From NCBI GenBank assembly GCA_016183365.1, contig JACPES010000003.1, positions 13,726 through 77,725 on the forward strand: 64,000 nucleotides of DNA. Reading direction: 5' to 3'. Position numbers and translations under genes: made by a program. The stretch is from Candidatus Collierbacteria bacterium (GTDB lineage Bacteria; Patescibacteriota; Microgenomatia; UBA1400; JACPES01). Shown here in pieces: positions 2,168 through 59,106 of this stretch. The notes under the pieces are model-generated. The model was not told the origin of the DNA and did no database searches. It saw only the letters and a list, made by a program, of their open reading frames with translations. Each line of letters opens with the position of its first letter. Positions within the stretch are counted from its first letter, which is position 1.

Positions 2168-3961
2168 CTACTTTTTTTCAATATTAAACAATCCGCTCTT
2201 TAAGGCGATTCTGCCCGGGGCCCGTAAATTGAAAGCTTTCTTAAATTCAGATCCGGCAATAGCCACTGATCCTTTATCAGTGTCAAATGTAACACTGGAA
2301 GTTATCCCGTTGTCGGAATAAGTTACCGAAATGCCGTTGACTTTCCCAAATCCCCCGCCGGCGCTTTCCGAGCGCGATTTTAACTCGCCGATAGAATATG
2401 GACTGCCGCCCCAGCAGGGTCCGGCAGGAGTAATCCTGTCGTCACCTTGACCGGATTTCACCAATACCGCCCAAGCGTTTAAAATATCGGCCATTTCCTC
2501 GGAAGTCAACCACGGATGCGACCGGCCGCAGCCATCGCCGGAGCGGCTTCGGTACCAGCCTTTGTAAAACCACGGACTGGCGGCGATTTTTTCATAAGCT
2601 TCTCCGGTCCAACCGCCCCGGCCGGATTTGGTGTCCCAAAACCCGGGGGTCGAATAACCATTGGAGCTATACGATTCCTGATATCCGCCGGAGGTCGAAG
2701 CGTACCAGGCGGAAAACGGCTGGCCGTTGGCAATTAAAACCCAGCCGCTGGTAGCATTGACGGCTTCTTCCCATTTACCGCCTTTATTGGCAGGCTTATA
2801 AACCTGGCACTGCTCGGTAGCGCAAATACTGCCGCTGCCATTGTTGGTATAAGCCAGAGCGTAAGATCGGGCGGCCACCGCCTGGGCTTTCAAAGCCTCC
2901 ATTCCGCCTTCGTCGCCCCAGCTTCCCGGCATTTCATAAATTCTTTTGGCATAGGTCTCTAAATCCACCGATCCGTATCCCCGAACATTAATATTTATGC
3001 CGGTGGAATAATCTTTTTTAATCTCAATTCCCCCGCCGTAATAAGCCTTTAAAATATCTTCGGCCGATTGGCCGTTTTTGGCCCGGCCAAAAGCCCCGTA
3101 CTGGCTCATCCCCTTAAAATGCGGGGCTCCGAATGAAAAAGCGGCGAAAGCCGGAGAAAATCCCGGATTATAATCCGGCCTAGAGGCGGGGTCGTCGGCC
3201 AGGGGCACATCGCCGACAGTAGTCTGAAAAGTTTCCGCTTTTTCGGTTAAAATCGCTTTTTGTCTGGCCGAAAGATCGGCAATTTTACCTGACAATTGGG
3301 CCTGATATTCCTTGGCTCCCTTAATTTCTTTTCTGAAAAAGGCCGCTTCCGTATCCAATTGGGTTTGAAGTTTGGCTAATTGGGTTTTTCTTTCCAGTTG
3401 CTTTTTTTGCTCAATTTCCAATCCTCTTGACTCTTCAGAGATACGGACGATAATTTCCCGGTCTTGGGCGGCGGCGGCCTGGCGGTAGCCCAATTCCCGG
3501 GTTAAATCCGCGGCAGACGAAGACCCCACCAACAATAAAAATGGGCTCATTGATTGTTGGCGTTTATATAAATTTCTGACCCTGATGGATAATAATTGAT
3601 ATTGAACCGCCATTTCAGTTTGTTTGGAATCCAATTCTTTGGCCAGACGTTTATTTTCCGCCACCGCCGCATTAATTCCTTTTTGGGCCGAAACAATTCT
3701 GGCGTCTAATTTTGATACTTCGGCTTCCAACGGGACTGTCGCCGATTCAGACAATTGCCGCAAATGGGATAAATCGTCAATCTGTGCCTGCAAATCGCCT
3801 AGCTCTGTCGCCGAGACGCCGCCATTATTGATAATAGATAAATAGACAAATAGACCCAAAAGTACACTTGCTGCGATTCGTGGTTTACATCCACGTAATC
3901 GTAGGGCGTGACTTCTGGGCGGGCAAATAGACAAATAGACAAATGCCAGAATTTTTCTCAC
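2168..3961 (-). CDS. SpoIID/LytB-domain protein with an N-terminal coiled coil
   Basis: Carries the motifs MSQYGAFGRA, EMPGSWG, EALKAQAVAARSYAL and CATEQCQVY typical of the SpoIID/LytB amidase-enhancer domain. A long Ala/Gln/Leu-rich coiled coil precedes it. The start is uncertain because two AGACAAATAGAC repeat copies and a hairpin lie at 3885-3915. Confidence 0.75.
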   Translation of the reverse strand: MRKILAFVYLSICPPRSHALRLRGCKPRIAASVLLGLFVYLSIINNGGVSATELGDLQAQIDDLSHLRQLSESATVPLEAEVSKLDARIVSAQKGINAAVAENKRLAKELDSKQTEMAVQYQLLSIRVRNLYKRQQSMSPFLLLVGSSSAADLTRELGYRQAAAAQDREIIVRISEESRGLEIEQKKQLERKTQLAKLQTQLDTEAAFFRKEIKGAKEYQAQLSGKIADLSARQKAILTEKAETFQTTVGDVPLADDPASRPDYNPGFSPAFAAFSFGAPHFKGMSQYGAFGRAKNGQSAEDILKAYYGGGIEIKKDYSTGININVRGYGSVDLETYAKRIYEMPGSWGDEGGMEALKAQAVAARSYALAYTNNGSGSICATEQCQVYKPANKGGKWEEAVNATSGWVLIANGQPFSAWYASTSGGYQESYSSNGYSTPGFWDTKSGRGGWTGEAYEKIAASPWFYKGWYRSRSGDGCGRSHPWLTSEEMADILNAWAVLVKSGQGDDRITPAGPCWGGSPYSIGELKSRSESAGGGFGKVNGISVTYSDNGITSSVTFDTDKGSVAIAGSEFKKAFNLRAPGRIALKSGLFNIEKK

Positions 3962-4573: not shown

Positions 4574-5371
4574 GTGAAATTTTTTCTGTGTCCCCTTAAT
4601 TTCAAAGTGAAACGCTTATTCAACTTTCAGAGATTAAAACAGTTGTTGGGCATTATGCTTATCTTGTTGGCTATTGTTTTTAGTCAGACTGTTTTAGTAG
4701 AAAAATTTGGTTTCAGTAACGTCGTTTACGCTCAAGTGCAATGCTGTACCTCACCGGCTCAAGTAACATTTGTTGGCGGAAATGTTTATTGTTCACTTCA
4801 TACCGGAACCGGCATTCCGACAAATTGCTCTGGATCAACCCCTAACTGTGATGTTGAAACTAACCAGTGTATTCCTATTCCCGACATTACTAATCCGCAA
4901 TGCTGTACCTCACCGGCTCAAGTAACATTTGTTGGCGGAAATGTTTATTGTTCACTTCATACCGGAACCGGCATTCCGACAAATTGCTCTGGGAACTGCG
5001 ACGTTCTAACTAACCGATGCATCAATTCTCTCCCCGGCGGCGGGCCGACGATCACCGTCTACGATCCGACGTGCAATTCTGGAACTGGATATTACGGTTA
5101 TTCCGGTGTTAAAAGTGCCTTGGGGTGTTTGCCGACTGATCCGCAAACGTTTATTAATACCGCCACCCCTTGGGCGGTGGGGATTGGAGCCGGAATTGCT
5201 TTTCTACTGGGGCTTTATGGAGCGCTGATGATTGTTATTTCCGCCGGCGACCCGGAAAAAATGCAGGCTGGCAAAGAAATTATTACCAGCGCGATTGCCG
5301 GACTATTATTAATAGTTTTTGCGGTTTTTATTTTAAGAATAATTGGGGTTGATGTATTAAAATTGTTTTAG
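4574..5371 (+). CDS. Secreted protein: duplicated Cys-rich module fused to a VirB2/TrbC-like pilin domain
   Basis: The signal peptide probably starts at MLILLAIVF. Two copies of QCCTSPAQVTFVGGNVYCSLHTGTGIPTNCSG are encoded by a 95-nt exact DNA repeat (4739-4833 and 4898-4992). The C-terminal pilin-like segment is TATPWAVGIGAGIAFLLGLYGALMIVISAGDPEKMQAGKEIITSAIAGLLLIVFAVFIL. Confidence 0.55.
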   Translation: MKFFLCPLNFKVKRLFNFQRLKQLLGIMLILLAIVFSQTVLVEKFGFSNVVYAQVQCCTSPAQVTFVGGNVYCSLHTGTGIPTNCSGSTPNCDVETNQCIPIPDITNPQCCTSPAQVTFVGGNVYCSLHTGTGIPTNCSGNCDVLTNRCINSLPGGGPTITVYDPTCNSGTGYYGYSGVKSALGCLPTDPQTFINTATPWAVGIGAGIAFLLGLYGALMIVISAGDPEKMQAGKEIITSAIAGLLLIVFAVFILRIIGVDVLKLF

Positions 5372-6123: not shown

Positions 6124-6900
6124 TTGGTAAAATCTTTTCTAGAAATGAAAAAATCGTTTTCCCTTAGCCCTCATCCCTTAGCCCTTAGCCCTTTTCTCCC
6201 CCGGCACATCGCCATCATCATGGACGGCAACCGGAGATGGGCTAAAGCCCGCGGCCTGGCCGCCGTTATGGGCCATGACAAGGCGGCCCGCGACGTCATT
6301 GAGCCGATTGTTGATAGGGCGATCCAATTGGGAATAAAGTTTTTAACCTTTTGGGCTTTTTCCACCGAAAACTGGAAACGGGATAAAGCCGAAATCAGAG
6401 CATTAATGGGGATTTTCCGGGAAGGATTAGATAAATTGGGCGGTAAACTCAACGAAAAAGGCGTTCGTTTGAACGTCATTGGTGAAATGGAAAAATTCCC
6501 TGCAGATATCCAAGAAAAAACCAAGAAGTATATGGAGCTAAGCCGTGACAATATCCAAATCTCCGTCAGCTTCGCCCTGAACTATGGAGGAAGAGACGAA
6601 ATCCTGCGAGCCGTAAGACGGCTCTTCGAAAAAATTCGAAATTCGAAATTCGAAATTCGAAATTTAAACGAAGAAATGTTTGCGAAATTTCTTGACACCG
6701 CGGATATGCCGGACCCGGATTTGATCATTAGAACCGGCGGCGATCTGCGGTTATCCGGCTATTTTCCCTGGCAATCGGTATACTCGGAGTTATATTTCAC
6801 CAAAACCCTGTGGCCGGATTTCACCCCGAAGGAACTGGATAAAGCATTGGAAGATTACGAAAAACGAGAACGGCGATTCGGTGGCGGAGGGAGAAAATAA
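6124..6900 (+). CDS. uppS: Undecaprenyl diphosphate synthase
   Basis: Motif HIAIIMDGNRRWAKARGL and the usual UPP synthase core are present. The likely start is the ATG at 6145. The N-terminal extension is encoded by the CCCTTAGCC repeat, and an in-frame GAAATTC x4 repeat encodes KIRNSKFEIRNL. Confidence 0.85.
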   Translation: MVKSFLEMKKSFSLSPHPLALSPFLPRHIAIIMDGNRRWAKARGLAAVMGHDKAARDVIEPIVDRAIQLGIKFLTFWAFSTENWKRDKAEIRALMGIFREGLDKLGGKLNEKGVRLNVIGEMEKFPADIQEKTKKYMELSRDNIQISVSFALNYGGRDEILRAVRRLFEKIRNSKFEIRNLNEEMFAKFLDTADMPDPDLIIRTGGDLRLSGYFPWQSVYSELYFTKTLWPDFTPKELDKALEDYEKRERRFGGGGRK

Positions 6901-6902
6901 AA

Positions 6903-6985
6903 AAAATTGCTAAATTGTTATATTGTTAAATTGGAATACGCACCAATTAGTCCTGCAAAGCAGGATCTGGCTCTGCCAGACAATC
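6903..6985. repeat. About 80-nt hairpin repeat element, copy 1
   Basis: ATTGCTAAATTGTTATATTGTTAAATTGGAATACGCACCAATTAGTCCTGCAAAGCAGGATCTGGCTCTGCCAGACAATCCAGCAAT, containing a TCCTGC...GCAGGA stem-loop, followed by a CAATCTA heptamer array. Confidence 0.5.
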
Positions 6986-7030
6986 CAGCAATCCAACAAT
7001 CTAGCAATCTAGCAATCTGACAATCTAACA
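6981..7030. repeat. CAATCYA heptamer array running into the start codon of pilin gene 3
   Basis: CAATCCAGCAATCCAACAATCTAGCAATCTAGCAATCTGACAATCTAACAATG. Confidence 0.65.
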
Positions 7031-7360
7031 ATGTATTTATTCACAGTCAACATCGGCCAAGATTTAAAACTCCAGGACGATACTCCAATTGGCGACGTCA
7101 TCCAATTCCAAAGCGTCGGAGCCTTGATTTCCGCCTGGCTGCCAAATATTTATATTTTAGGCGGGATTATCGTCTTGATTCTAATCATTGTTTCCGGGTT
7201 TATGTGGATTACCAATGCCGGAAATATTAAAAAAATTGAAGAGTCTCAAAAGATCCTGACCTTTGCTATAATGGGTTTTATATTTTTGTTCGGGAGTTAT
7301 TGGATTATTCAAATAATTCAAGTCCTGACGGGAATACCGATATTGAATTCAAGTTTATGA
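7031..7360 (+). CDS. VirB2/TrbC-like pilin paralog 3
   Basis: Hydrophobic helix (ISAWLPNIYILGGIIVLILIIVSG), then FMWITNAGNIKKIEESQKILTFAIMGFIFLFGSYW. Confidence 0.5.
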   Translation: MYLFTVNIGQDLKLQDDTPIGDVIQFQSVGALISAWLPNIYILGGIIVLILIIVSGFMWITNAGNIKKIEESQKILTFAIMGFIFLFGSYWIIQIIQVLTGIPILNSSL

Positions 7361-7830
7361 AAATACTGAATGAAAAATACCGAATACTGAATAAAAAAAA
7401 GGGCGCATCTGACTTCCCTTATTCAGTATTCAGTATTCAGAATTCAGCATTCGTTTCTCTTGGCATCTTTGGCACCATTAAAAATCCTCTCGGCGATACT
7501 TTTGATAAAGCCGGAGGATACGCATCGGTTGAGGGCGGATTGGGGTTATTACTCACCAATCTCATCCGCTTAACTACCGTCGGCGCCGGCATTTGGTTTT
7601 TGGTCAATTTGATTACTGCCGGGGTGATGTATATCGGCTCCAACGGCGAAACCGAAAAAATCACTATAGCTTGGGCTAAAATTTGGCAATCGTTGATCGG
7701 CCTTTTGATAATCGTTAGTTCTTTGACCCTGGCAGCTATTATCAGTAAAGTATTTTTCGGTAGCTACTCCACCATTCTTAATCCGGTAATCTATGGTCCG
7801 GGCAATGCCGGAGGAGGAAAAATTCCATGA
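7357..7830 (+). CDS. VirB2/TrbC-like pilin paralog 4
   Basis: Starts at the ATG at 7357 (the ORF-track start at 7300 overlaps the previous gene). Core is GAGIWFLVNLITAGVMYIGSNGETEKITIAWAKIWQSLIGLLIIV. A TATTCAG heptamer repeat sits in the N-terminal region. Confidence 0.45.
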   Translation: MKILNEKYRILNKKKGASDFPYSVFSIQNSAFVSLGIFGTIKNPLGDTFDKAGGYASVEGGLGLLLTNLIRLTTVGAGIWFLVNLITAGVMYIGSNGETEKITIAWAKIWQSLIGLLIIVSSLTLAAIISKVFFGSYSTILNPVIYGPGNAGGGKIP

Positions 7831-8669: not shown

Positions 8670-9026
8670 ATGTCATTATTATCAACAGTGTTTGCGGCAG
8701 GAAGCGGAGATATTAATATCGGCCCCAAAGCAACGGCGGCCGGAGTGGACAAAGTAGGCACTATCGGTGATTTAATTGGCGCGGCCATTGGCTCGGCATT
8801 CTTAATCGCCTTCCTGCTGGTATTCGTAATGCTGGTTTTTGGCGGCGTCCAATGGATTACTTCCGGCGGAGACAAAGAAAATACCCAAAAAGCCAAAGAC
8901 CGGATAACTTCCGCTTTGGTGGGAATAGCGATCATCGGCGGAGCTTGGGCTTTAATGAGAGTTGTAGAATTTTTCTTCAACATCGATATCTTGGGTGGAT
9001 TCAAATTGCCGTCGGCGGCGCAATAA
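8670..9026 (+). CDS. VirB2/TrbC-like pilin paralog 7
   Basis: Preceded by an AAGGAGGTGAG ribosome-binding site. Core is GAAIGSAFLIAFLLVFVMLVFGGVQWITSGGDKENTQKAKDRITSALVGIAIIGGAWALM. Confidence 0.5.
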   Translation: MSLLSTVFAAGSGDINIGPKATAAGVDKVGTIGDLIGAAIGSAFLIAFLLVFVMLVFGGVQWITSGGDKENTQKAKDRITSALVGIAIIGGAWALMRVVEFFFNIDILGGFKLPSAAQ

Positions 9027-9043
9027 ACGCGATCCGAATAAGA

Positions 9044-9178
9044 TGATGTCTTGAAGGTGGAAGATGGAAGTCCTTGATCTTGAAACCTTGACGAATCACC
9101 ATCGAGGATTCAAGGTAGCAATCACATCAAGTTCAAAAACCTCAAGAGCATCCATCTTCAAAACATCTATTTCGTGGA
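9044..9178 (+). repeat. About 140-nt palindromic intergenic element, copy A (between pilin genes 7 and 8)
   Basis: Starts GATGTCTTGAAG...CTTGATCTTGAA.CCTTGAC and ends ...ATCAAGTTCAA.AA...CAAGAGCATCCATCTTCAAAACATC. The two ends are inverted repeats of each other. Confidence 0.6.
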
Positions 9179-22974: not shown

Positions 22975-23060
22975 AAAAGGTTAAAAGGCTAACAGGCTAA
23001 AAGGTTAAAAAGGTTAACGGGTTAGAAAGGTTAGAAAAATTAAAAAGTTGAAAAGGCTGA
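22975..23060. repeat. Degenerate AAAGGTT/AAAGGCT tandem array (left flank of the four-helix-bundle gene)
   Basis: GGTTAAAAGGCTAACAGGCTAAAAGGTTAAAAAGGTTAACGGGTTAGAAAGGTTAGAAAAATTAAAAAGTTGAAAAGGCTGAAAA. The reverse complement of this array recurs at 23462-23570, 22290-22335 and 37093-37140. Confidence 0.6.
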
Positions 23061-23458
23061 AAATACAACAAACCATGCAAACCAATAAAGGATATTTTAG
23101 TATTGAGGACACCGGCACGTATAAATTAGCGCATAAAGCTGGAGCAATTGTATGGAACGAAGTCCAAAAATGGTCATGGTTGGCCAAACGAACCTTAGGG
23201 GCTCAATGGATTAATTCAACTGATTCCGTTTCTGCAAATTTAGTAGAAGGTTTCGGAAGATTCCATAAAAAGGATCGCGTTAAGTTCTACTATAACGCCA
23301 AAGGATCAGCATTAGAAAGCCTCGAATGGGCGCGAAAAGCAATAGAAAGAAAGTTAATCGACGAATCAAAGGCAAAAGAAATTATTGCAATCCTAGAACA
23401 GCTTCCTCGAGAGATAAATTTTCAGATAAAATATTCTATGGAGAAATTAAAGAAGTAA
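23048..23458 (+). CDS. Four-helix-bundle protein (23S rRNA intervening-sequence protein family)
   Basis: Signature WINSTDSVSANLVEGFGRFHKKDRVKFYYNAKGSALESLEWARKAIERKLI. Flanked by inverted arrays of AAAGGTT-type repeats (22975-23060 and 23462-23570). Confidence 0.65.
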   Translation: MKRLKIQQTMQTNKGYFSIEDTGTYKLAHKAGAIVWNEVQKWSWLAKRTLGAQWINSTDSVSANLVEGFGRFHKKDRVKFYYNAKGSALESLEWARKAIERKLIDESKAKEIIAILEQLPREINFQIKYSMEKLKK

Positions 23459-23559
23459 TTTTATTTTTTGAGCCTTTTCAACCTTTCTATCCTTCTAACT
23501 TTTCGGTTTTCTTTTTTAACCTTTTTGGCCTTTCCAGCCTTTTTAACCTTCTGACCTTT

Positions 23560-23862
23560 TTATCCTGCCTTCAAATACCCGTCCGCAAAGGCTTCCTGTG
23601 CCCGTTGCACGAGTTGGTCAATTGTCATTCCCGTCCTCTCCGCGAACAGCTCTTCCATCCGCTTTTTGGCCTGCTCCTCATCACCAATCGCTTCCACTTC
23701 TTTCATATCCTCTTCCGTCAAACTCGTCATTAAAGCCGCGTACACGTCCAAGGCCGACAATTTCGCCACCCCGGACAACAACTGCCCGACCTCTTCGTCG
23801 GTCTTTCCCTCGGTTTTAAGTTTGGCAAGCCAATCAGAAAAGACTGTTGTTGGTTGATTCAT
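23560..23862 (-). CDS. Small acidic helical protein (100 aa)
   Basis: Intact ORF, last gene of a 3-gene operon that overlaps the upstream gene by 4 nt. Confidence 0.4.
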   Translation of the reverse strand: MNQPTTVFSDWLAKLKTEGKTDEEVGQLLSGVAKLSALDVYAALMTSLTEEDMKEVEAIGDEEQAKKRMEELFAERTGMTIDQLVQRAQEAFADGYLKAG

Positions 23863-40243: not shown

Positions 40244-40575
40244 TTGCTCCCTAAACGTTTCAGACTCTCCAAACAAGAATTTAAACAGGTAATGGACGAT
40301 GGCCAAATGGCGTCGGGAAGGCTGATGGGGATAATAATAGGGACAAGGGACAAGGGACAAGGGAATTGCCAAAAGCGGGAATTATTGTCAGCAAGAAATT
40401 GTCGAATAAAGCCGTGGTCAGAAATAAATTAAAACGGCGGTTGCGGGCGGCGCTGCAGGCTGTTTTGCCGGAAATTCATTCAGAACCGCACTTGGTAGTA
40501 CTGCCCAATCGTCGCGCCCTCAACACTTCTGTCGGGGAATTGGAATCCGAGCTTCGTTCTATCCTAACAATTTAA
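40244..40575 (+). pseudogene. rnpA: RNase P protein component, reading frame broken at a GGGACAA heptamer repeat
   Basis: Frame 0 reads MLPKRFRLSKQEFKQVM...IIIGTRDKGQGN and stops at 40432. The +2 frame from the TTG at 40366 reads LPKAGIIVSKKLSNKAVVRNKLKRRLRAALQ..., the RnpA core. The junction is the GGGACAA x3.6 repeat at 40340-40365, and removing two units restores one ORF. Confidence 0.6.
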
Positions 40576-40601
40576 CAATTCAGCAATGTACCAATGAAAT
40601 A

Positions 40602-40955: not shown

Positions 40956-41744
40956 AGTCAAGCCATGTTCAACACTTATCTCTATCAACCAATCTTGCAG
41001 TCTTTGATCTTTTTCTATCACCTGTTGGGAGATTCCTTCGGGTGGGCGATTATCGGAATGACTTTTGTGATCCGGTTGCTTTCGGCCCCATTAACAATTC
41101 CGGCCATGCGGGTCCAACAGAAACTGCAGAAACTCCACCCCGAATTGGAAAAACTTAAAAAGACACATACTGATAAGAAGGAACTGCAAAAAGCCCAACT
41201 GGAACTTTACCGCCAACATGGAGTTAATCCCGGCGCCGGGTGTCTGCCGCAAATCGTTCAGATAGTTATTTTGATCGCCCTTTATCAAGTATTTATGAAA
41301 TTTTTAAATGGCGGAATGGTTGATGGTCAGGCCGTAAATATGAACTTTTGGTGGCTAGATTTATCCAAACCGGATAAATATTATATTTTGCCCTTCTTGG
41401 CCGGAACCACCCAGCTGGTTTTTTCCATGATGCTAAAGCCGGGAACGGAACACCATGAAGAAAGCAGAAAGATTGTTGAAAGAAAAGAAGAGTCCCGCGG
41501 AACGGGATCCGGCTCCGCCGGAAAAACAGAAATGGATATGGCCACTGAAATCCAAAACCAAATGTTGTTTATGATGCCGCTGATGACAACCATAATCTCG
41601 TTAAAATTCCCCTCCGGCCTGGCCCTATATTGGGTAATGACCACTGTTTTTTCCATAATCCAGCAATGGATAATGACCGGTCCCGGAGGCTTAAGATATT
41701 TTTTCAAAAAAGCCCTTGATATAATTGGCATATGGAAGAAATAA
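40947..41744 (+). CDS. yidC: YidC/Oxa1-family membrane protein insertase
   Basis: Core segments IRLLSAPLTIPAMRVQQKLQKLHPELEKLKK and GCLPQIVQIVILIALYQVF, in the conserved rnpA-yidD-yidC-jag order. Confidence 0.85.
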   Translation: MKISQAMFNTYLYQPILQSLIFFYHLLGDSFGWAIIGMTFVIRLLSAPLTIPAMRVQQKLQKLHPELEKLKKTHTDKKELQKAQLELYRQHGVNPGAGCLPQIVQIVILIALYQVFMKFLNGGMVDGQAVNMNFWWLDLSKPDKYYILPFLAGTTQLVFSMMLKPGTEHHEESRKIVERKEESRGTGSGSAGKTEMDMATEIQNQMLFMMPLMTTIISLKFPSGLALYWVMTTVFSIIQQWIMTGPGGLRYFFKKALDIIGIWKK

Positions 41745-47657: not shown

Positions 47658-47675
47658 TCTCCGGAAGATTGCTAA

Positions 47676-47756
47676 ATTGTCCTGCGGAGCAAGATCCTGC
47701 TTTGCAGGACTAAATGCCTCCACAATTTAACAATCTAACAATTTAACAATCTAACA
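47676..47756. repeat. Partial third copy of the hairpin element plus a CAATCTA/CAATTTA heptamer array
   Basis: GATTGCTAAATTGTCCTGCGGAGCAAGATCCTGCTTTGCAGGACTAAATG then CAATTTAACAATCTAACAATTTAACAATCTAACAATG, which runs into the tsaC-tsaE start codon. Confidence 0.4.
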
Positions 47757-48857
47757 ATGAAAATCCTTAACCTGAAAGAAACCTCTAAACATGACGCTAC
47801 CGCTCAATCAGTTAAAATTCTCCGAGCTGAGGGCCTTGTCATCTACCCCACCGAAACCGTTTACGGCGCCGGAGTTGATGCTACCAATCCGGCGGCGGTA
47901 AAAAAACTGGGCGAATATAAATCTAGGCCATTCGGCAAACCTTTTTCAATTGCCGTAGCCGATTGGAAAATGGCGGAAAAATATGTGGTTTTGAATGAAA
48001 CCGCCAAAAAACTTTACCGGCAATTTTTGCCCGGTCCGTTAACAATAATATCTAAACTAAAAACACTTAATTCTTCTAACCCTTCTAACCATTTTCTTTC
48101 TCCCGGCGTCGCCTCTGAAGCCGGAACACTGGGGATTAGGATTTCATCGTATCCGCTGGTTGCGAAAATTGTCAGGTCGTTGGGCAGGCCAATTACCGCC
48201 ACATCCGCCAACGAGGCTTACAAAAAAAGGCCATATCAGATATCAGATATTTTATTTAATATTTCAGACAGGAAGAAACAGCTGATAGATTTAATTATTG
48301 ATGCCGGAGAATTGCCGAGAAATGAACCGTCAACAGTTATAGACACCACTTTGGACGATCAGACAGTTCTGCGTCAGGGAGATATTCAATTAAAAGATAA
48401 AATCCACATTTTGTCCAGGACTCCGGAAAATACTCAAAATCTGGCCAAAGAACTATGGCAAAAATATGAGGGGTTCGTTGGAAAACGAGCGATTATTTTT
48501 GCTCTCGAAGGCCAACTCGGAGCAGGCAAAACCGAATTTACCAAAGGCCTGGCCCGGGCAATGGGGATAAAAAAGGAAATTACCTCGCCAACATTCAATT
48601 TGGTGAATCATTATTCTTTACTCTTTACTCCCTACTCCTTACTCCATATTGACGCTTGGCGTCTTGAATCATCATCAGAACTTGGATCATTGGACTTTTC
48701 TAAAACAATATCCGATAAGTCGGTGATAGCGGTAGAATGGGCCGATCGGGTAACAAACGTCATTCGCCGCTATCAGGAAGAAGCTGTCATCATCTGGGTC
48801 AAAATTAAATACGGAAAGTCCAAAAACGACCGTTTAATCAGCTGGGGAATTTTTTAG
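47757..48857 (+). CDS. Fusion of threonylcarbamoyl-AMP synthase (TsaC/YrdC domain) with the tRNA t6A ATPase TsaE
   Basis: N-half: LVIYPTETVYGAGVDA, SANEAYKKRP, PSTVIDTT (YrdC). C-half: EGQLGAGKTEFTKGLARAMGI, SPTFNLVNHY, HIDAWRL (TsaE). Two heptamer repeats are embedded in frame (LNSSNPSNHF and SLLFTPYSLLH). Confidence 0.7.
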   Translation: MKILNLKETSKHDATAQSVKILRAEGLVIYPTETVYGAGVDATNPAAVKKLGEYKSRPFGKPFSIAVADWKMAEKYVVLNETAKKLYRQFLPGPLTIISKLKTLNSSNPSNHFLSPGVASEAGTLGIRISSYPLVAKIVRSLGRPITATSANEAYKKRPYQISDILFNISDRKKQLIDLIIDAGELPRNEPSTVIDTTLDDQTVLRQGDIQLKDKIHILSRTPENTQNLAKELWQKYEGFVGKRAIIFALEGQLGAGKTEFTKGLARAMGIKKEITSPTFNLVNHYSLLFTPYSLLHIDAWRLESSSELGSLDFSKTISDKSVIAVEWADRVTNVIRRYQEEAVIIWVKIKYGKSKNDRLISWGIF

Positions 48858-48903: not shown

Positions 48904-50004
48904 ATGACAATTCTTTCTATCGACACCAGTTGCGACGAAACAGCTGTCGCGGTTACAGACGGAAACAGGGTTTTAAGCAATATTATCTGGTCCCAGGCCT
49001 TGCTCCATTCTAAATGGGGTGGCGTTGTTCCGTCTCTTGCCAAGCGCGCCCACCAAGAACGTCTTCCTTGGGTTGTCTCCAAAGCGGTTCACGATTCACG
49101 GTTAACGATTAACGAAATTGATGCCATTGCGGCAACGATTGGGCCGGGATTGGCGATTGCGCTGGAGGTGGGAATTGCCAAGGCAAAAGAATTGGCCCTG
49201 AAGTGGCATAAGCCATTAATTCCGGTGAATCACCTCGAGGGCCATATCTTAAGCCCGTTAGCCTGGTCAACAATCAGCAATCAGCAATTAACAATTAACA
49301 ATTTAAACTTTCCCTTCGCGGCCCTCGTAGTTTCCGGCGGTCACACAGAGCTTGTTTTAGTTAAAAAGATAGGCGAATATCAAATTTTAGTCCGAACAAT
49401 AGATGATGCTTTGGGAGAGGCTTTGGATAAAGCCGCCAGGATGTTAGGATTGGGGTATCCGGGAGGCGCGGTGTTGGAAAAATTGGCCAAAACCGGAAAT
49501 CCTTCAACCTATAAACTGCCATTGCCATTATTAGGCCGGGAAAACCAAGGTAAATTCAGTTATTCAGGATTAAAAACCGCTTTTTATCGGTTAACAAACG
49601 AAAAAAGTTTAACGAAGCAAGAAATTTACGATCTAGCCGCCAGTTTTCAAAACACTTCTTTTGAGCATTTGATAAGAATTGTTAAAAAGTCGGTTTTGTC
49701 ATTGCGAGCCACGCTACAGACGGGACGTGGCAATCCAGAAATTACTGATTTTCTAGTCGGCGGCGGCGTCGCCTCCAACATCGAACTTCGCAAAAGGCTG
49801 CGGAATCTTGGAAAAAAATTCGGACTGAAAATTCATTTTCCCTATTCCAAAAAACTCTGTACCGACAATGCCGCCATGATTGGTCTGGCAGGGCAATGGG
49901 CCTTTGCGAGAGGCGAACTGAAACGAACAAAAGAAGAAATAGAATCAATTGACAGAATTCCCGGACTGGATTTTTCTTTAGGCCTACCTCTTTCTCGCGC
50001 ATAA
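48904..50004 (+). CDS. tsaD: tRNA N6-adenosine threonylcarbamoyltransferase TsaD (Kae1/Gcp)
   Basis: ILSIDTSCDETAVAV, HLEGHIL and VSGGHTELV motifs. An in-frame CAATTAA-type repeat encodes STISNQQLTINNLNF. Confidence 0.85.
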   Translation: MTILSIDTSCDETAVAVTDGNRVLSNIIWSQALLHSKWGGVVPSLAKRAHQERLPWVVSKAVHDSRLTINEIDAIAATIGPGLAIALEVGIAKAKELALKWHKPLIPVNHLEGHILSPLAWSTISNQQLTINNLNFPFAALVVSGGHTELVLVKKIGEYQILVRTIDDALGEALDKAARMLGLGYPGGAVLEKLAKTGNPSTYKLPLPLLGRENQGKFSYSGLKTAFYRLTNEKSLTKQEIYDLAASFQNTSFEHLIRIVKKSVLSLRATLQTGRGNPEITDFLVGGGVASNIELRKRLRNLGKKFGLKIHFPYSKKLCTDNAAMIGLAGQWAFARGELKRTKEEIESIDRIPGLDFSLGLPLSRA

Positions 50005-56930: not shown

Positions 56931-57878
56931 ATGACACGAATCGGAAGAAAAATCTTCTCTACCCTGCTATATCATTCTATTTTTGACTATCCTTTAACTA
57001 TTGATGAAATACACCACTATTTAATTTCCGAGAAAATTGTGCCGTTGTCAACGTTAAAAGAGGAAATTGGTGTTTTGCTAAAAGTTGGGAAAATTTTGTC
57101 AGGCGGCGAATTCTTTATTTCATCATCTATCATCCATTATCCATTATCCATCATTGTCCTCCGCCGCCACCGGAAGGATATAAGCCAAAAGAAACTGATG
57201 ATTGCGAAACGGGCATCAAGGGTCATTTCAATAATTCCGTGGGTCAAAATGATAGCCATTACCGGAGCTTTGGCGATGGAAAACGTCGACGAGAAAGACG
57301 ATATTGACCTTATGATTATTACCTCAAAAAATCGCCTATGGATTGTCCGCCCATTGGTTCTCTTGTTTGTCTCTCTTTTCTTCAAACGCCGTCATCCTTT
57401 GTCCAACGCTACAACTAACCACCAATCCGGCGGAGCCGGATCCCGCTCCGCGGGACAACTAATAACCCATAACAATGAAATTTGTGTAAATTTGTGGCTT
57501 GATGAATCTGCTCTGGTTATTCCCGAAGGCCAACGAAATCTTTACACTGCCCATGAATTGGCCCAAATGAAGCCGATTGTCAACAAAGAAAAAACATATG
57601 AAAAAATGCTTATTCGGAATAAATGGGGAGAAAAATTCTTAGCAAATTTTTGGTCAACAATTCAGCAATTTAACAATTTAACAATTAACAATCAGCAATT
57701 TGCTACTAACAACCCGTTGAACTTACTGAATCTATTTCTCTTTTGCCTCCAATTTACTTATATGAAAGCAAAGATGACCAACGAACGCGTCTCGCTTCAT
57801 GCCGCTTTCTTTCATCCGGGGAACAGGGCTGATACAATTCTTACCGCATATGACCGTCTTCGTCACCGGGATTTTTGA
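56931..57878 (+). CDS. Nucleotidyltransferase-fold (Pol-beta superfamily) protein
   Basis: ITGALAMENVDEKDDIDLMIIT is a GS...D.D-type NTase motif. Two heptamer repeats are in frame (SSSIIHYPLSII and QQFNNLTINNQQF). Confidence 0.4.
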   Translation: MTRIGRKIFSTLLYHSIFDYPLTIDEIHHYLISEKIVPLSTLKEEIGVLLKVGKILSGGEFFISSSIIHYPLSIIVLRRHRKDISQKKLMIAKRASRVISIIPWVKMIAITGALAMENVDEKDDIDLMIITSKNRLWIVRPLVLLFVSLFFKRRHPLSNATTNHQSGGAGSRSAGQLITHNNEICVNLWLDESALVIPEGQRNLYTAHELAQMKPIVNKEKTYEKMLIRNKWGEKFLANFWSTIQQFNNLTINNQQFATNNPLNLLNLFLFCLQFTYMKAKMTNERVSLHAAFFHPGNRADTILTAYDRLRHRDF

Positions 57879-58269
57879 TTTGTTGCACATCGAGCATCTG
57901 AATTTTTTGCGCGCCGCTAAGAAATTGGGAGGCAAACTGGTGGTGGGGATTGAATCTGATGCCAGAACAAAACAGTTGAAGGGGTCAAATCGGCCAATCA
58001 TGAATCAGGCTGAAAGAAAACAAATGCTGGAAGCCTTGGATTGCGTCGACGAAGTCATAGTTTTGCCCGATAAATTTAACTCCGATCAAGAATATGAGAA
58101 AATACTTTTGTCGGTTGGGGCGGATACTTACGCAGTATCGGAAAACAGTCCCTTTATGGAAAATAAAAAAAGAATTTGTCAGAGAGCCGGAGTTACGATT
58201 AAGGTTGTTAATCGGTATAATCCTGAATATTCGACTACTAAATTGATTGAAAAATTGTCATATTGTTAA
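57846..58269 (+). CDS. Cytidylyltransferase-like (HxGH) nucleotidyltransferase
   Basis: VFVTGIFDLLHIEHLNFL is an HxGH motif, as in RibL/TagD-like enzymes. The likely start is MTVFVTG; the ORF-track start at 57799 overlaps the previous gene. Confidence 0.55.
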
Positions 58270-58340
58270 ATTGTTAATTGAAATACACGCCAATTAGTCC
58301 TGCGAAGCATGATCTGGCCCCGCCAGACAATCTAGCAAAT
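58258..58340. repeat. About 80-nt hairpin repeat element, copy 2
   Basis: TATTGTTAAATTGTTAATTGAAATACACGCCAATTAGTCCTGCGAAGCATGATCTGGCCCCGCCAGACAATCTAGCAAAT, about 85% identical to copy 1. It lies immediately before the start of the YidC-like gene. Confidence 0.5.
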
Positions 58341-59106
58341 GATTATGAATTTATTCACCCAGATTTTCTACCAGCCATTTATAAATCTTTTGGTCGTGAT
58401 TTATTACGGCCTGCGGTTTATTTTGGGCTCAAATGCCGATATGGGCATGGCGGTAATATTGTTTACAGTGGCTATCAGAATAATCTTATTGCCGTTGACT
58501 ATTTCCGGAGATCGGACAGAAGCCGAAAGGTATAAATTGTCCGGAGAGGTTGACGAGCTTAAAAAAAGGTTTTCCGCCGATCCGGTGGCCCGCGATGCTC
58601 ACGTCAAGAATTTATTGAGATCAAACCGGAAAATTGTATTTTTATCTGGTCTTAATCTTGTCATCCAAACCATTGTAGCTTTAATGCTATGGCGGATATT
58701 TGCCAAAGGTTTATTGGGGGCCGACTTTCACTTTTTATATGATTTTGTCCCCCAGCCAAAAGAAACGCTTAATTTAACCTTTATGGGTCAGTATGATTTA
58801 ACCAAGCCAAATCCTACTCTCAACGTCTTGCAGTCAATCCTGATTTTTATTTTTGAAATTGAGGCTAGCTTATTTTCATTGTTTCCTATCACCAGGAAAG
58901 AAATAATCCTGGCCCAGCTTACCCTGCCGATAGGCTCATATATTATTTTTTCCCAACTTCCGGCCGGGAAAAAGTTGTTCATTATTACCACCTTGATTTT
59001 TAGCATTGGCTACACTACTTTTAGCCAGATAAAATATTGGTGGTATAGGTTGGAAAAAACAATGAACAGAAAACCTGCCTCGCCGGCAGGCGGGCAAGAA
59101 GCATGA
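58339..59106 (+). CDS. YidC/Oxa1-like membrane insertase paralog
   Basis: MAVILFTVAIRIILLPLTISGDRTEAERYKLSGEVDELKKRF...SNRKIVFLSGLNLVIQTIVALMLWRIF parallels the YidC core. Confidence 0.5.
   Translation: MIMNLFTQIFYQPFINLLVVIYYGLRFILGSNADMGMAVILFTVAIRIILLPLTISGDRTEAERYKLSGEVDELKKRFSADPVARDAHVKNLLRSNRKIVFLSGLNLVIQTIVALMLWRIFAKGLLGADFHFLYDFVPQPKETLNLTFMGQYDLTKPNPTLNVLQSILIFIFEIEASLFSLFPITRKEIILAQLTLPIGSYIIFSQLPAGKKLFIITTLIFSIGYTTFSQIKYWWYRLEKTMNRKPASPAGGQEA

Follow-up and report, generated by a model that had tools for sequence, protein, structure and literature searches.

A 30-nt double-hairpin element in inverted octamer arrays: a small, probably mobile repeat in a Candidatus Collierbacteria genome

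What kind of sequence is the hairpin-bearing repeat that lies between uppS and a small pilin-like gene in the stretch of Candidatus Collierbacteria bacterium DNA analyzed here (contig JACPES010000003.1, positions 13,726 to 77,725; 64,000 nucleotides in all, hereafter the window)? A first-pass annotation, made from the letters alone, had described copies of about 80 nt at 6903-6985 and 58258-58340 and had offered small RNA genes, transcription-terminator or RNA-stability modules, and repetitive extragenic palindromic (REP)-like or miniature inverted-repeat transposable element (MITE)-like repeats as possible identities. The explanation preferred here, with modest confidence, is a palindromic composite of about 90 nt around a 30-nt double-hairpin element (DHE), a small and probably mobile repeat that lands in octamer arrays. 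Copies 1-3 of the composite are abbreviated c1, c2, and c3, and L-numbers designate loci from other genomes.

Three composites and their double-hairpin core

When positions 6900-6995 are used as a blastn query against the window, c2 (58250-58338, plus strand) matches c1 with 86% identity over 90 nt (E 1.5e-21) and c3 (47750-47667, minus strand) with 81% over 88 nt (E 2e-16). The similarity of about 85% first reported for c1 and c2 is thus borne out, and the third sequence, listed at 47676-47725 as a shorter relative, is in fact full-length and inverted, which gives three full-length family members, c1 and c2 direct and c3 inverted; these copy counts come from the 64-kb window of the source genome. 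Each composite is laid out as arm A, spacer, GC-rich core, and arm B. The arms are arrays of period 8 according to TRF, with the unit ACAATCTA present in 6.6 copies at 6980-7032 and 4.6 copies at 47722-47758, and the downstream array has its reverse complement in the upstream AAATTGTT array (6904-6933, 58252-58277), which makes the whole unit a long imperfect palindrome. Terminal inverted repeats of the kind expected of a MITE are therefore present, arm A being the reverse complement of arm B. The CAATCTA heptamer arrays previously noted after copies 1 and 3 do run into start codons, at 7031 and 47757, but their period is 8 and they belong to the repeat itself. The c1 region folds strongly as RNA (-38.5 kcal/mol, z -4.9, with z ranging from -4.9 to -5.9), because the arrays are inverted.

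The first composite, c1, lies between the uppS stop codon (6900) and the ATG (7031) of the pilin-like gene; UppS has 100% identity to an NCBI protein assigned to Candidatus Collierbacteria. Its arm A (6906-6933, plus strand; ATTGCTAAATTGTTATATTGTTAAATTG) is an octamer array of TRF period 8 within the dispersed-repeat family and contains three tandem extended -10 motifs found by motif scan at 6908, 6916, and 6924 (TGCTAAATT, TGTTATATT, and TGTTAAATT, plus strand); it is followed by a spacer (6934-6950, plus strand; GAATACGCACCAATTAG) that the alignment shows to be common to c2 and that has one more array unit, CAATTAG, at its end. The c1 DHE (6951-6980; TCCTGCAAAGCAGGA plus TCTGGCTCTGCCAGA) has both stems paired at six of six positions and scores 50.7 bits on the plus and 48.7 bits on the minus strand with a covariance model, and as single-stranded DNA it is predicted to form two hairpins on either strand. 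Arm B (6981-7033, plus strand; ACAATCTA repeated 6.6 times by TRF) runs into the ATG; it has an orthologous array ahead of the same ATG in L153 and is predicted to be unpaired in the putative 5' untranslated region. The c1 sequence is identical across seven independently assembled samples, and that of c3 across two, so c1 is not an assembly artefact.

By Pfam, c2 stands between a cytidylyltransferase-like gene and a YidC-like gene, and c3 between a HIT-family gene and a tsaC-tsaE fusion. In c2, arm A (58246-58279, plus strand; blastn, Pfam) extends over the final codons and the stop of the cytidylyltransferase-like gene and has TGTTAAATT at 58264, the spacer (58280-58297, plus strand; blastn) reads GAAATACACGCCAATTAG, the DHE (58298-58327; TCCTGCGAAGCATGA plus TCTGGCCCCGCCAGA) has one mismatch in stem 1 and scores 42.4 bits, and a remnant of arm B (58328-58338, plus strand; CAATCTAGCAA) directly precedes the ATGs at 58339 and 58345 of the YidC-like gene. 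In c3, the inverted arm B (47667-47679, minus strand) appears as GATTGCTAAATTG, with TGCTAAATT facing tsaC-tsaE, and is kept in L128; the DHE (47680-47709; TCCTGCGGAGCAAGA plus TCCTGCTTTGCAGGA) was recovered by both the hairpin census and the covariance model; and the spacer with arm A (47710-47759, minus strand; TRF, blastn) appears as (ACAATYTA) repeated 4.6 times, running into the tsaC-tsaE ATG, where the L128 ortholog carries 3.6 units.

The DHE consists of two inverted 15-nt units, each of the form TC-(4 bp)-N3-(4 bp)-GA, that meet at GATC. The TCCTGC-N3-GCAGGA stem-loop originally ascribed to both c1 and c2 is exact in c1 (TCCTGC-AAA-GCAGGA, 6951-6965), but in c2 it has one stem mismatch (TCCTGC-GAA-GCATGA, 58298-58312), and the adjacent second hairpin had been overlooked (TCTGGC-TCT-GCCAGA at 6966-6980 in c1; 58313-58327 in c2; 47695-47709 in c3). 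A census was made for adjacent hairpins, two together, with 6-bp stems and 3-nt loops in which 11 or more of the 12 pairs form. The window yields five such DHEs, of which three are intergenic and two lie in frame within open reading frames (ORFs), against about 0.3 per 193 kb of Markov-shuffled sequence (about 0.1 expected per window). With a covariance model whose training set included the window copies, these five score 34-51 bits on both strands, and the next best match scores 15 bits.

An alignment of 77 distinct elements provides the pair counts. The two-hairpin structure is paired in 98.4% of cells, a percentage that is partly by construction since most of the sequences were found by pattern and then filtered for paired stems; the switching of pair types and the complementarity of the loops are not products of that construction. 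Variable stem columns covary (columns 9/17: CG 36, GC 26, UA 9; columns 24/32: CG 37, GC 33), and changes on both sides of a pair occur in 125 cells against 41 +/- 4 in shuffles, while slid controls pair at 23-47%. One long 13-bp hairpin was rejected as the conserved structure: single copies are predicted to be able to fold in this way, but at the variable stem positions the halves do not keep pairing with each other (17-32 of 77 cells unpaired), and thus two small hairpins are what is conserved. Of 231 loop positions, 152 are complementary between the two halves (93 +/- 8 in shuffles), and both halves share the same stem in 31 of the 77 elements (16 by chance), from which it follows that a DHE is a hairpin plus its inverted copy and that each DNA strand displays one purine-type (GNA) loop and one TNC loop. 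Inverted doublets predominate, with no triplets anywhere and only two true singlets in the window.

The heptamer GCGNAGC occurs on at least one strand in 64 of the 77 elements and on both strands in 38, and the window DHEs that carry it include c2 (GCGAAGC), c3 (GCGGAGC), and the copy at 57426 (GCGGAGC); c1, with AAA and TCT loops that are not of the GNA type, is without it. As DNA, the mini-hairpin d(GCGNAGC) melts at about 76 degrees C, is nuclease-resistant, and is reportedly not bound by single-stranded DNA-binding protein (PMC13037366). Since most DHEs carry this very stable sequence, with one such loop per strand, the likely intermediate in their movement would be single-stranded hairpin DNA.

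Empty sites and copies in coding sequence

Relatives for comparison came from a metagenome scan with the YidC protein, which gave 17 related loci, and from protein look-ups, which gave more. At the c3 site, L128 (about 74% nucleotide identity in this stretch) aligns throughout the leader, including GATTGCTAAATTG on the left and (ACAATYTA)n-ATG on the right, and has 15 nt of further array units precisely where the window has the 30-nt core. L128 thus keeps both c3 arms without the DHE, so that the arms are old and the core is new: this DHE lies within a leader of inverted octamer arrays that already stood upstream of tsaC-tsaE. At the two further intergenic sites, relatives are without the unit of arms, spacer, and DHE. 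The genes that flank c2 overlap or lie 3 nt apart in L152 (90% amino acid identity) and in L150 and L151 (81-82%), and the window has about 88 extra nt, equal to the whole unit (58258-58345), that all three are missing. At c1, L153 (90% UppS identity) has the same downstream array into the same ATG, with (ATATCCTG)x3 in the upstream position instead, and arm A, spacer, and core are absent. Presence or absence between close relatives extends to coding sequence, as the in-frame DHE of YidC is absent from 16 of 16 YidC relatives, and to overall load, with five DHEs per 64-kb window against one in 187 kb of relatives that were not chosen by pattern.

The junction at c3 is ATTG^CTAA without a visible target duplication, and the same insertion site, ATTG^CTAA, is found in all three array copies. 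No target-site duplication is visible at the c2 and c3 empty sites, where the arrays blur the boundaries. Among 72 elements, the preferred flanking bases are T at positions -3 and -2 (the latter in 53/72) and, after C, A at positions +2 and +3, giving the consensus TTN, then TC...GA, then CAA. The DHE would accordingly behave as selfish DNA whose insertion, at T-rich^CAA/CTA sites, leaves no visible duplication of the target. In the simplest history, the core would have landed in the tsaC leader, and the palindromic unit of arms, spacer, and core would then have been copied to two intergenic sites. Copying within the genome fits the stem types, as the rather rare TCCTGC and TCTGGC are both shared by c1-c3, unlike the two coding copies, which have TCCGGC and TCCCGC.

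These two coding copies, both supported by census and covariance model, are in frame. One lies in YidC (41493-41522; TCCCGCGGAACGGGA plus TCCGGCTCCGCCGGA) and encodes SRGTGSGSAG; the other lies in ORF 56931-57878 (57426-57455; TCCGGCGGAGCCGGA plus TCCCGCTCCGCGGGA), encodes SGGAGSRSAG, and is the reverse complement of the YidC copy except for one base. Across genomes, about 57% of 74 DHEs fall in stop-free spans of at least 600 nt, compared with 75% of random positions, and the element is therefore enriched in, and far from confined to, intergenic DNA. Its length is a multiple of three, 56 of 77 DHEs have no stop in any of the six frames (31% of composition-matched shuffles), and the preferred reading frame is TCC/NGC (22/45). 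The survival of the DHE in genes would be due to its length of 30 nt, to the usual absence of stops from all frames, and to the Ser/Gly/Ala linker that it encodes.

The coding copies also bear on the proposal that the repeats are small non-coding RNA genes, or else intrinsic terminators or 3' RNA-stability hairpins of the upstream genes, which is now very improbable. It has in its favor the position of GC-rich hairpins just past the stop codons in c1 and c3 and the good folding of the region, but that fold stems from the inverted arrays, and the same 30 nt occur in frame in YidC and in another ORF, where termination would do harm. The near-equal scores of the two strands do not suit an RNA gene; a search of the entire window against Rfam 15 gives no match at gathering score, and relaxing the cutoff to E<=1 for c1 brings up only sub-threshold eukaryotic miRNA precursors, and a tRNA/tmRNA scan of the window found none. 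The hairpins are followed by CAATCC, CAATCT, or CTAAAT, that is by CAA or CTA, with no T-run after either hairpin on either strand, and a terminator scan of 6500-7500 was negative. At the c3 site, moreover, it is the 30-nt DHE alone that has been gained since the split from L128.

Promoter motifs, leaders, and arrays

Intergenic DNA contains 49 instances of the extended -10 motif TGnTAnnnT (18 expected), and the motif is found 10 times at 5-12 nt before the first ATG of long ORFs, compared with 0.73 per equal-sized bin elsewhere. Such boxes end 6-11 nt before starts, as at 2028, 3968, 9196, 17482, 21617, 22967, and 28151. A Shine-Dalgarno motif, even a loose one, precedes only 10 of 56 called genes in the window and relatives. 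These observations suggest many leaderless or near-leaderless mRNAs in this Collierbacteria genome.

Each of the arm units TTGCTAAATT, TTGTTATATT, and TTGTTAAATT is an instance of TGnTAnnnT, and they face inward from whichever arm is upstream; the transcript leader is predicted to be CA-rich and to stay unpaired as far as the ATG. If transcription started about 7 nt past the last arm motif, the transcript would open with the hairpin pair and continue as this leader tract. As a side effect, the composite would provide a gene that has no Shine-Dalgarno sequence with a promoter, a pair of 5' hairpins, and a CA-rich, unstructured leader extending to its start codon, and from the positions of the motifs it is plausible that the composite forms a portable promoter and leader in either orientation. 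A sigma-70 two-hexamer scan at c1 found no plus-strand promoter at threshold. Putative mobile promoters, homologous upstream regions before unrelated genes, were reportedly described by Matus-Garcia et al. in 2012. The composite resembles them in placing the same upstream region of about 90 nt, with its -10 motifs, before three unrelated genes, and differs from them in being a palindromic unit of tandem octamers with an inserted mini-element, its promoter being putative.

It could be supposed on these grounds that the composite is a selected cis-regulatory cassette, with tandem extended -10 promoters, a 5' hairpin pair that stabilizes or processes the mRNA, and a CA-rich leader replacing the Shine-Dalgarno sequence, in which the DHE is functional. 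The placement of TGnTAnnnT ahead of genes and its presence in the arms agree with this, as do the location of all three composites between a stop codon and the next start codon, the lack of homology among the downstream genes (pilin-like, YidC-like, and TsaC-TsaE), the leader predicted to be unpaired to the ATG, and the conserved position of the pre-ATG arrays in L128 and L153. The DHE is, however, dispensable, since L128 has the same leader without it; two of the five window DHEs and about half of those elsewhere are inside ORFs; the element is nearly strand-symmetric; and the genes at c2 abut in relatives with no cassette. A selected cassette is therefore rather unlikely.

A mobile DHE within a palindromic composite remains the preferred explanation, and several observations weigh against it. 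The empty sites are not fully clean, as L128 has extra array units at the c3 site and the YidC site differs by +30/-9 nt. At the site corresponding to 57426, L150 (~4620-4665) and L151 (~9010-9055) have a different 42-nt GC-rich hairpin-like insert (CGCCTGCAGACGCCTGGAGCGTCAGCGACTGGCGGGCAGG), and this site may be an insertion hot spot or hold a decayed element. Neither transposition events, nor excision products, nor polymorphism within populations were seen (c1 being identical in the seven samples), and composites were counted in the 64 kb of the source genome that was covered. The arm motifs also point antisense, so that the opposite arm would drive antisense transcription as well, and many other arrays in this genome are not promoter-like. 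The partly built-in pairing percentage belongs here too, and template-switch correction of quasi-palindromes, as opposed to selection or recent copying, could be what keeps the stems perfect. No mobilizing enzyme was identified, with no search aimed at REP-associated tyrosine transposases (RAYTs) or IS200-like genes made in the 64-kb window.

Arrays related to the arms occur elsewhere in the window without a DHE. Solo arrays of the ACAATTTA family, identified by TRF and blastn, lie at 40565-40595 (plus strand), at the end of rnpA and in the yidD leader, and at 57656-57700 (plus strand), in frame within ORF 56931-57878. About 80 TRF rows describe arrays of period 7-9 across the window, both intergenic and genic. 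Arrays of period 7-8 are translated in frame in conserved genes, at 6161-6193 and 6632-6664 (uppS), 40339-40364 (rnpA), and 49269-49303 (tsaD), and likewise at 57121-57154 and 57656-57700 in ORF 56931-57878; UppS has 258 amino acids in the window and 226-237 in several relatives. Several short-read contigs of the same organism (L142-L148) begin about 395 nt upstream of the pilin-like gene (window position ~6636), at an (AAATTCG)n array inside uppS, showing that arrays fragment assemblies. A small gene (23048-23458) that belongs to the 23S_rRNA_IVP family (Pfam E 3.7e-16) is bracketed by inverted arrays, (AAAGGTTA)n and (TAACCTTT)n, at 22975-23056 and 23470-23566; in L154 and L155, members of this family likewise occur beside arrays and adjoin uppS or pilin genes, and gene and arrays together look like a cassette that moves.

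Two further repeats or hairpins in the window are separate from these arrays. A perfect 96-nt direct repeat (4738-4833 and 4897-4992, spacing 159 nt) inside ORF 4574-5371 is a recent internal duplication. A long GC-rich imperfect hairpin at 2060-2175, between genes 1422-2021 and 2168-3961, has a single TCCCGC-TCA-GCGGGA unit at its tip, TTGACA before it, and a T-run after it; it has no Rfam match and could be a terminator or a small RNA.

Distribution, known repeats, and wider meaning

A scan with the pattern TCYNGCNNNGCNNGATCYNGCNNNGCNRGAC, covering one genome per GTDB species, returned at least 120 loci. Among the matches listed, 64 are low in GC and have both stems paired (mean about 47% G+C where stems paired), and 56 have at least 60% G+C (mean about 70% where stems unpaired), most of the latter representing a single conserved coding sequence of actinobacteria, in which the "stems" are unpaired. 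Going by record titles, 47 of these 64 low-GC loci belong to lineages of the candidate phyla radiation (CPR), namely Microgenomates, Collier-, Roizman-, Gottesman-, Levyibacteria, Uhr-, Kerfeld-, Moranbacteria, Doudna-, Wildermuth-, Jorgensenbacteria, Paceibacterota, Saccharibacteria, and Spechtbacterales. The rest are known by label only: 10 carry the automatic label 'uncultured Gammaproteobacteria', 3 are Lentisphaerota, and 4 are others. The DHE is thus a dispersed repeat of small size that occurs mainly in Patescibacteria, where it lies between genes, within ORFs in frame, and in broken tRNA-Cys copies; it may not be restricted to these bacteria, or the Gammaproteobacteria and Lentisphaerota labels may be wrong. 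The same array stands on both sides of the DHE in other genomes as well (L034, L039, L064, L087, L089, L111, L117, and L121). A scan of IMG/VR with the DHE pattern gave three matches, none with complementary stems, and at this stringency the element is therefore not phage-borne.

The recurrence of the core leaves next to no room for a chance or purely local duplication without wider meaning, the fallback of the first-pass annotation in case there were no additional copies and no expression. Only three composites were seen, and the whole composite was found in none of the other loci compared, which have arms alone or core alone, nor in about 2 kb of sequence beyond the window. Against this stand the E values of 1e-21 and 2e-16 within 64 kb and the core itself, which recurs in the 64 other low-GC loci among the matches listed, with stems that covary.

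Individual loci add detail. In the metagenome-assembled genomes (MAGs) labeled Lentisphaerota (L087 165, L111 2543, and L117 6435), a DHE subfamily with CTT/AGG loops lies in GGATATT arrays. Three CPR MAGs have, next to an intact tRNA-Cys(GCA) gene, a partial copy of it (L021 3244-3312; L091 3437-3505 and 3510-3720; L043 minus strand, ~5190-5250), with a DHE exactly within the anticodon of the copy (GGGTCTG^...^CAAAAC); the hairpins of L091 and L043 are nearly the same in sequence, those of L021 differ in stems and loops, and in L091 a small GIY-YIG ORF (Pfam E 2.7e-14) occupies the gap up to the intact tRNA. In three Patescibacteria genomes (L029 ~955, L092 ~6398, and L100 ~2869), a DHE occupies the same position of an orthologous gene, with flanks ttcctc^...^ctttttNccaaagaaaaacca and with stems that differ and are internally compensated, which reflects compensatory change after an old insertion or else more than one hit at the same site.

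Short palindromic repeats are known from other bacteria. Work by Elhai et al., published in 2008 in Genome Research, is said to describe cyanobacterial small dispersed repeats (SDRs), very small hairpin repeats embedded in arrays of heptamer short tandemly repeated repetitive (STRR) sequences. The SDR1-8 families, of 21-27 nt, belong to the Nostocales. The DHE is likewise a tiny hairpin-forming repeat, tens of nucleotides in size, inside short-period tandem arrays, but it differs in phylum, in length (30 nt versus 21-27 nt), in its GATC-centered double hairpin, in having octamer instead of heptamer arrays, and in being common in frame in genes, SDRs being set apart here by description and not by sequence. 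Rickettsia palindromic elements, of about 100-150 nt and confined to Rickettsia, insert in frame and are translated as an extra peptide. They share with the DHE the character of palindromic selfish DNA in frame in the genes of a reduced-genome, host-dependent bacterium, whereas the DHE is 30 nt long and spread across a superphylum. The d(GCGNAGC) mini-hairpin is matched exactly at the hairpin tip, on at least one strand, in the 64 of 77 DHEs counted above, but the examples known from nature are single sites in the single-strand origins of phages and plasmids (PMC13037366), and here it lies in a repeated 30-nt palindrome.

Another close comparison is with REPs and their inverted doublets (REPINs). 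As a dispersed palindromic repeat that is present or absent between relatives, the DHE comes close to the REP/MITE-like repeat that had been suspected, with the same short GC-rich hairpin, inverted-doublet unit, and sharp copy-number differences between close relatives, and a single-stranded hairpin intermediate is plausible for both. It could then be a REP/REPIN-type element, inverted doublets of a short palindrome moved in trans by a RAYT (an IS200/IS605-like Y1 HUH transposase) via single-stranded DNA. This would agree with the doublet structure, in that doublets far outnumber true singlets and triplets are lacking, as in REPINs, where inverted doublets predominate (PMC3116915), with the lack of a target duplication at c3, and with the great stability of the hairpin cores as single-stranded DNA. 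REPs are, however, defined by a conserved GTAG or CGTC tetranucleotide at one end (PMC3733652), and the DHE has no such tag at its hairpin foot, where the flank consensus is TTN...CAA. Nor is it extragenic, being frequent in ORFs (about 57% in long ones), and it occurs in Patescibacteria and has no spacer between its units, its total of 30 nt being far below the 71-110 nt of the doublet segments modeled in an earlier simulation of REPIN distribution (PMC3116915). Membership in the REP/REPIN group proper is improbable.

An array of the tandem interspaced guide RNA (TIGR) type was also considered, since such arrays are present in the CPR, and rejected. Such arrays alternate two repeats of 8-12 nt with 9-nt spacers, 5-15 times, beside a Nop-domain gene (PMC12045711), whereas the DHE has only two 15-nt units whose variable positions pair with each other, and the octamer arrays have no spacers. 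A full-text literature search aimed at Patescibacteria and the CPR found no description of such a repeat. Among small palindromic dispersed repeats, the DHE is unusual in its size, GATC-centered double mini-hairpin, tolerance in coding sequence, and superphylum-wide spread.

A wider hypothesis, put forward only tentatively, is that the DHE is an actively mobile, superphylum-wide mini-element, among the smallest mobile DNAs, which an enzyme conserved in Patescibacteria would move by acting on single-stranded mini-hairpin DNA at TTG^CAA-like targets. Such an element would add Ser/Gly/Ala linkers to proteins, break tRNA copies, and build portable promoter cassettes together with octamer arrays.

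The genomes of Patescibacteria are tiny and are usually called streamlined. A repeat that spreads in them, that essential genes tolerate (YidC in this case), and whose load varies among close relatives would represent an overlooked cause of change in genomes and proteins. Practical consequences also arise, as the arrays break short-read assemblies (with contigs starting at the array inside uppS), in-frame inserts inflate apparent protein divergence, and a 30-nt palindrome with a GGATCC or GATC center could mislead motif, CRISPR, and terminator finders. The extended -10 boxes near starts, together with the few Shine-Dalgarno sites, provide a testable model of gene expression for an uncultured lineage.

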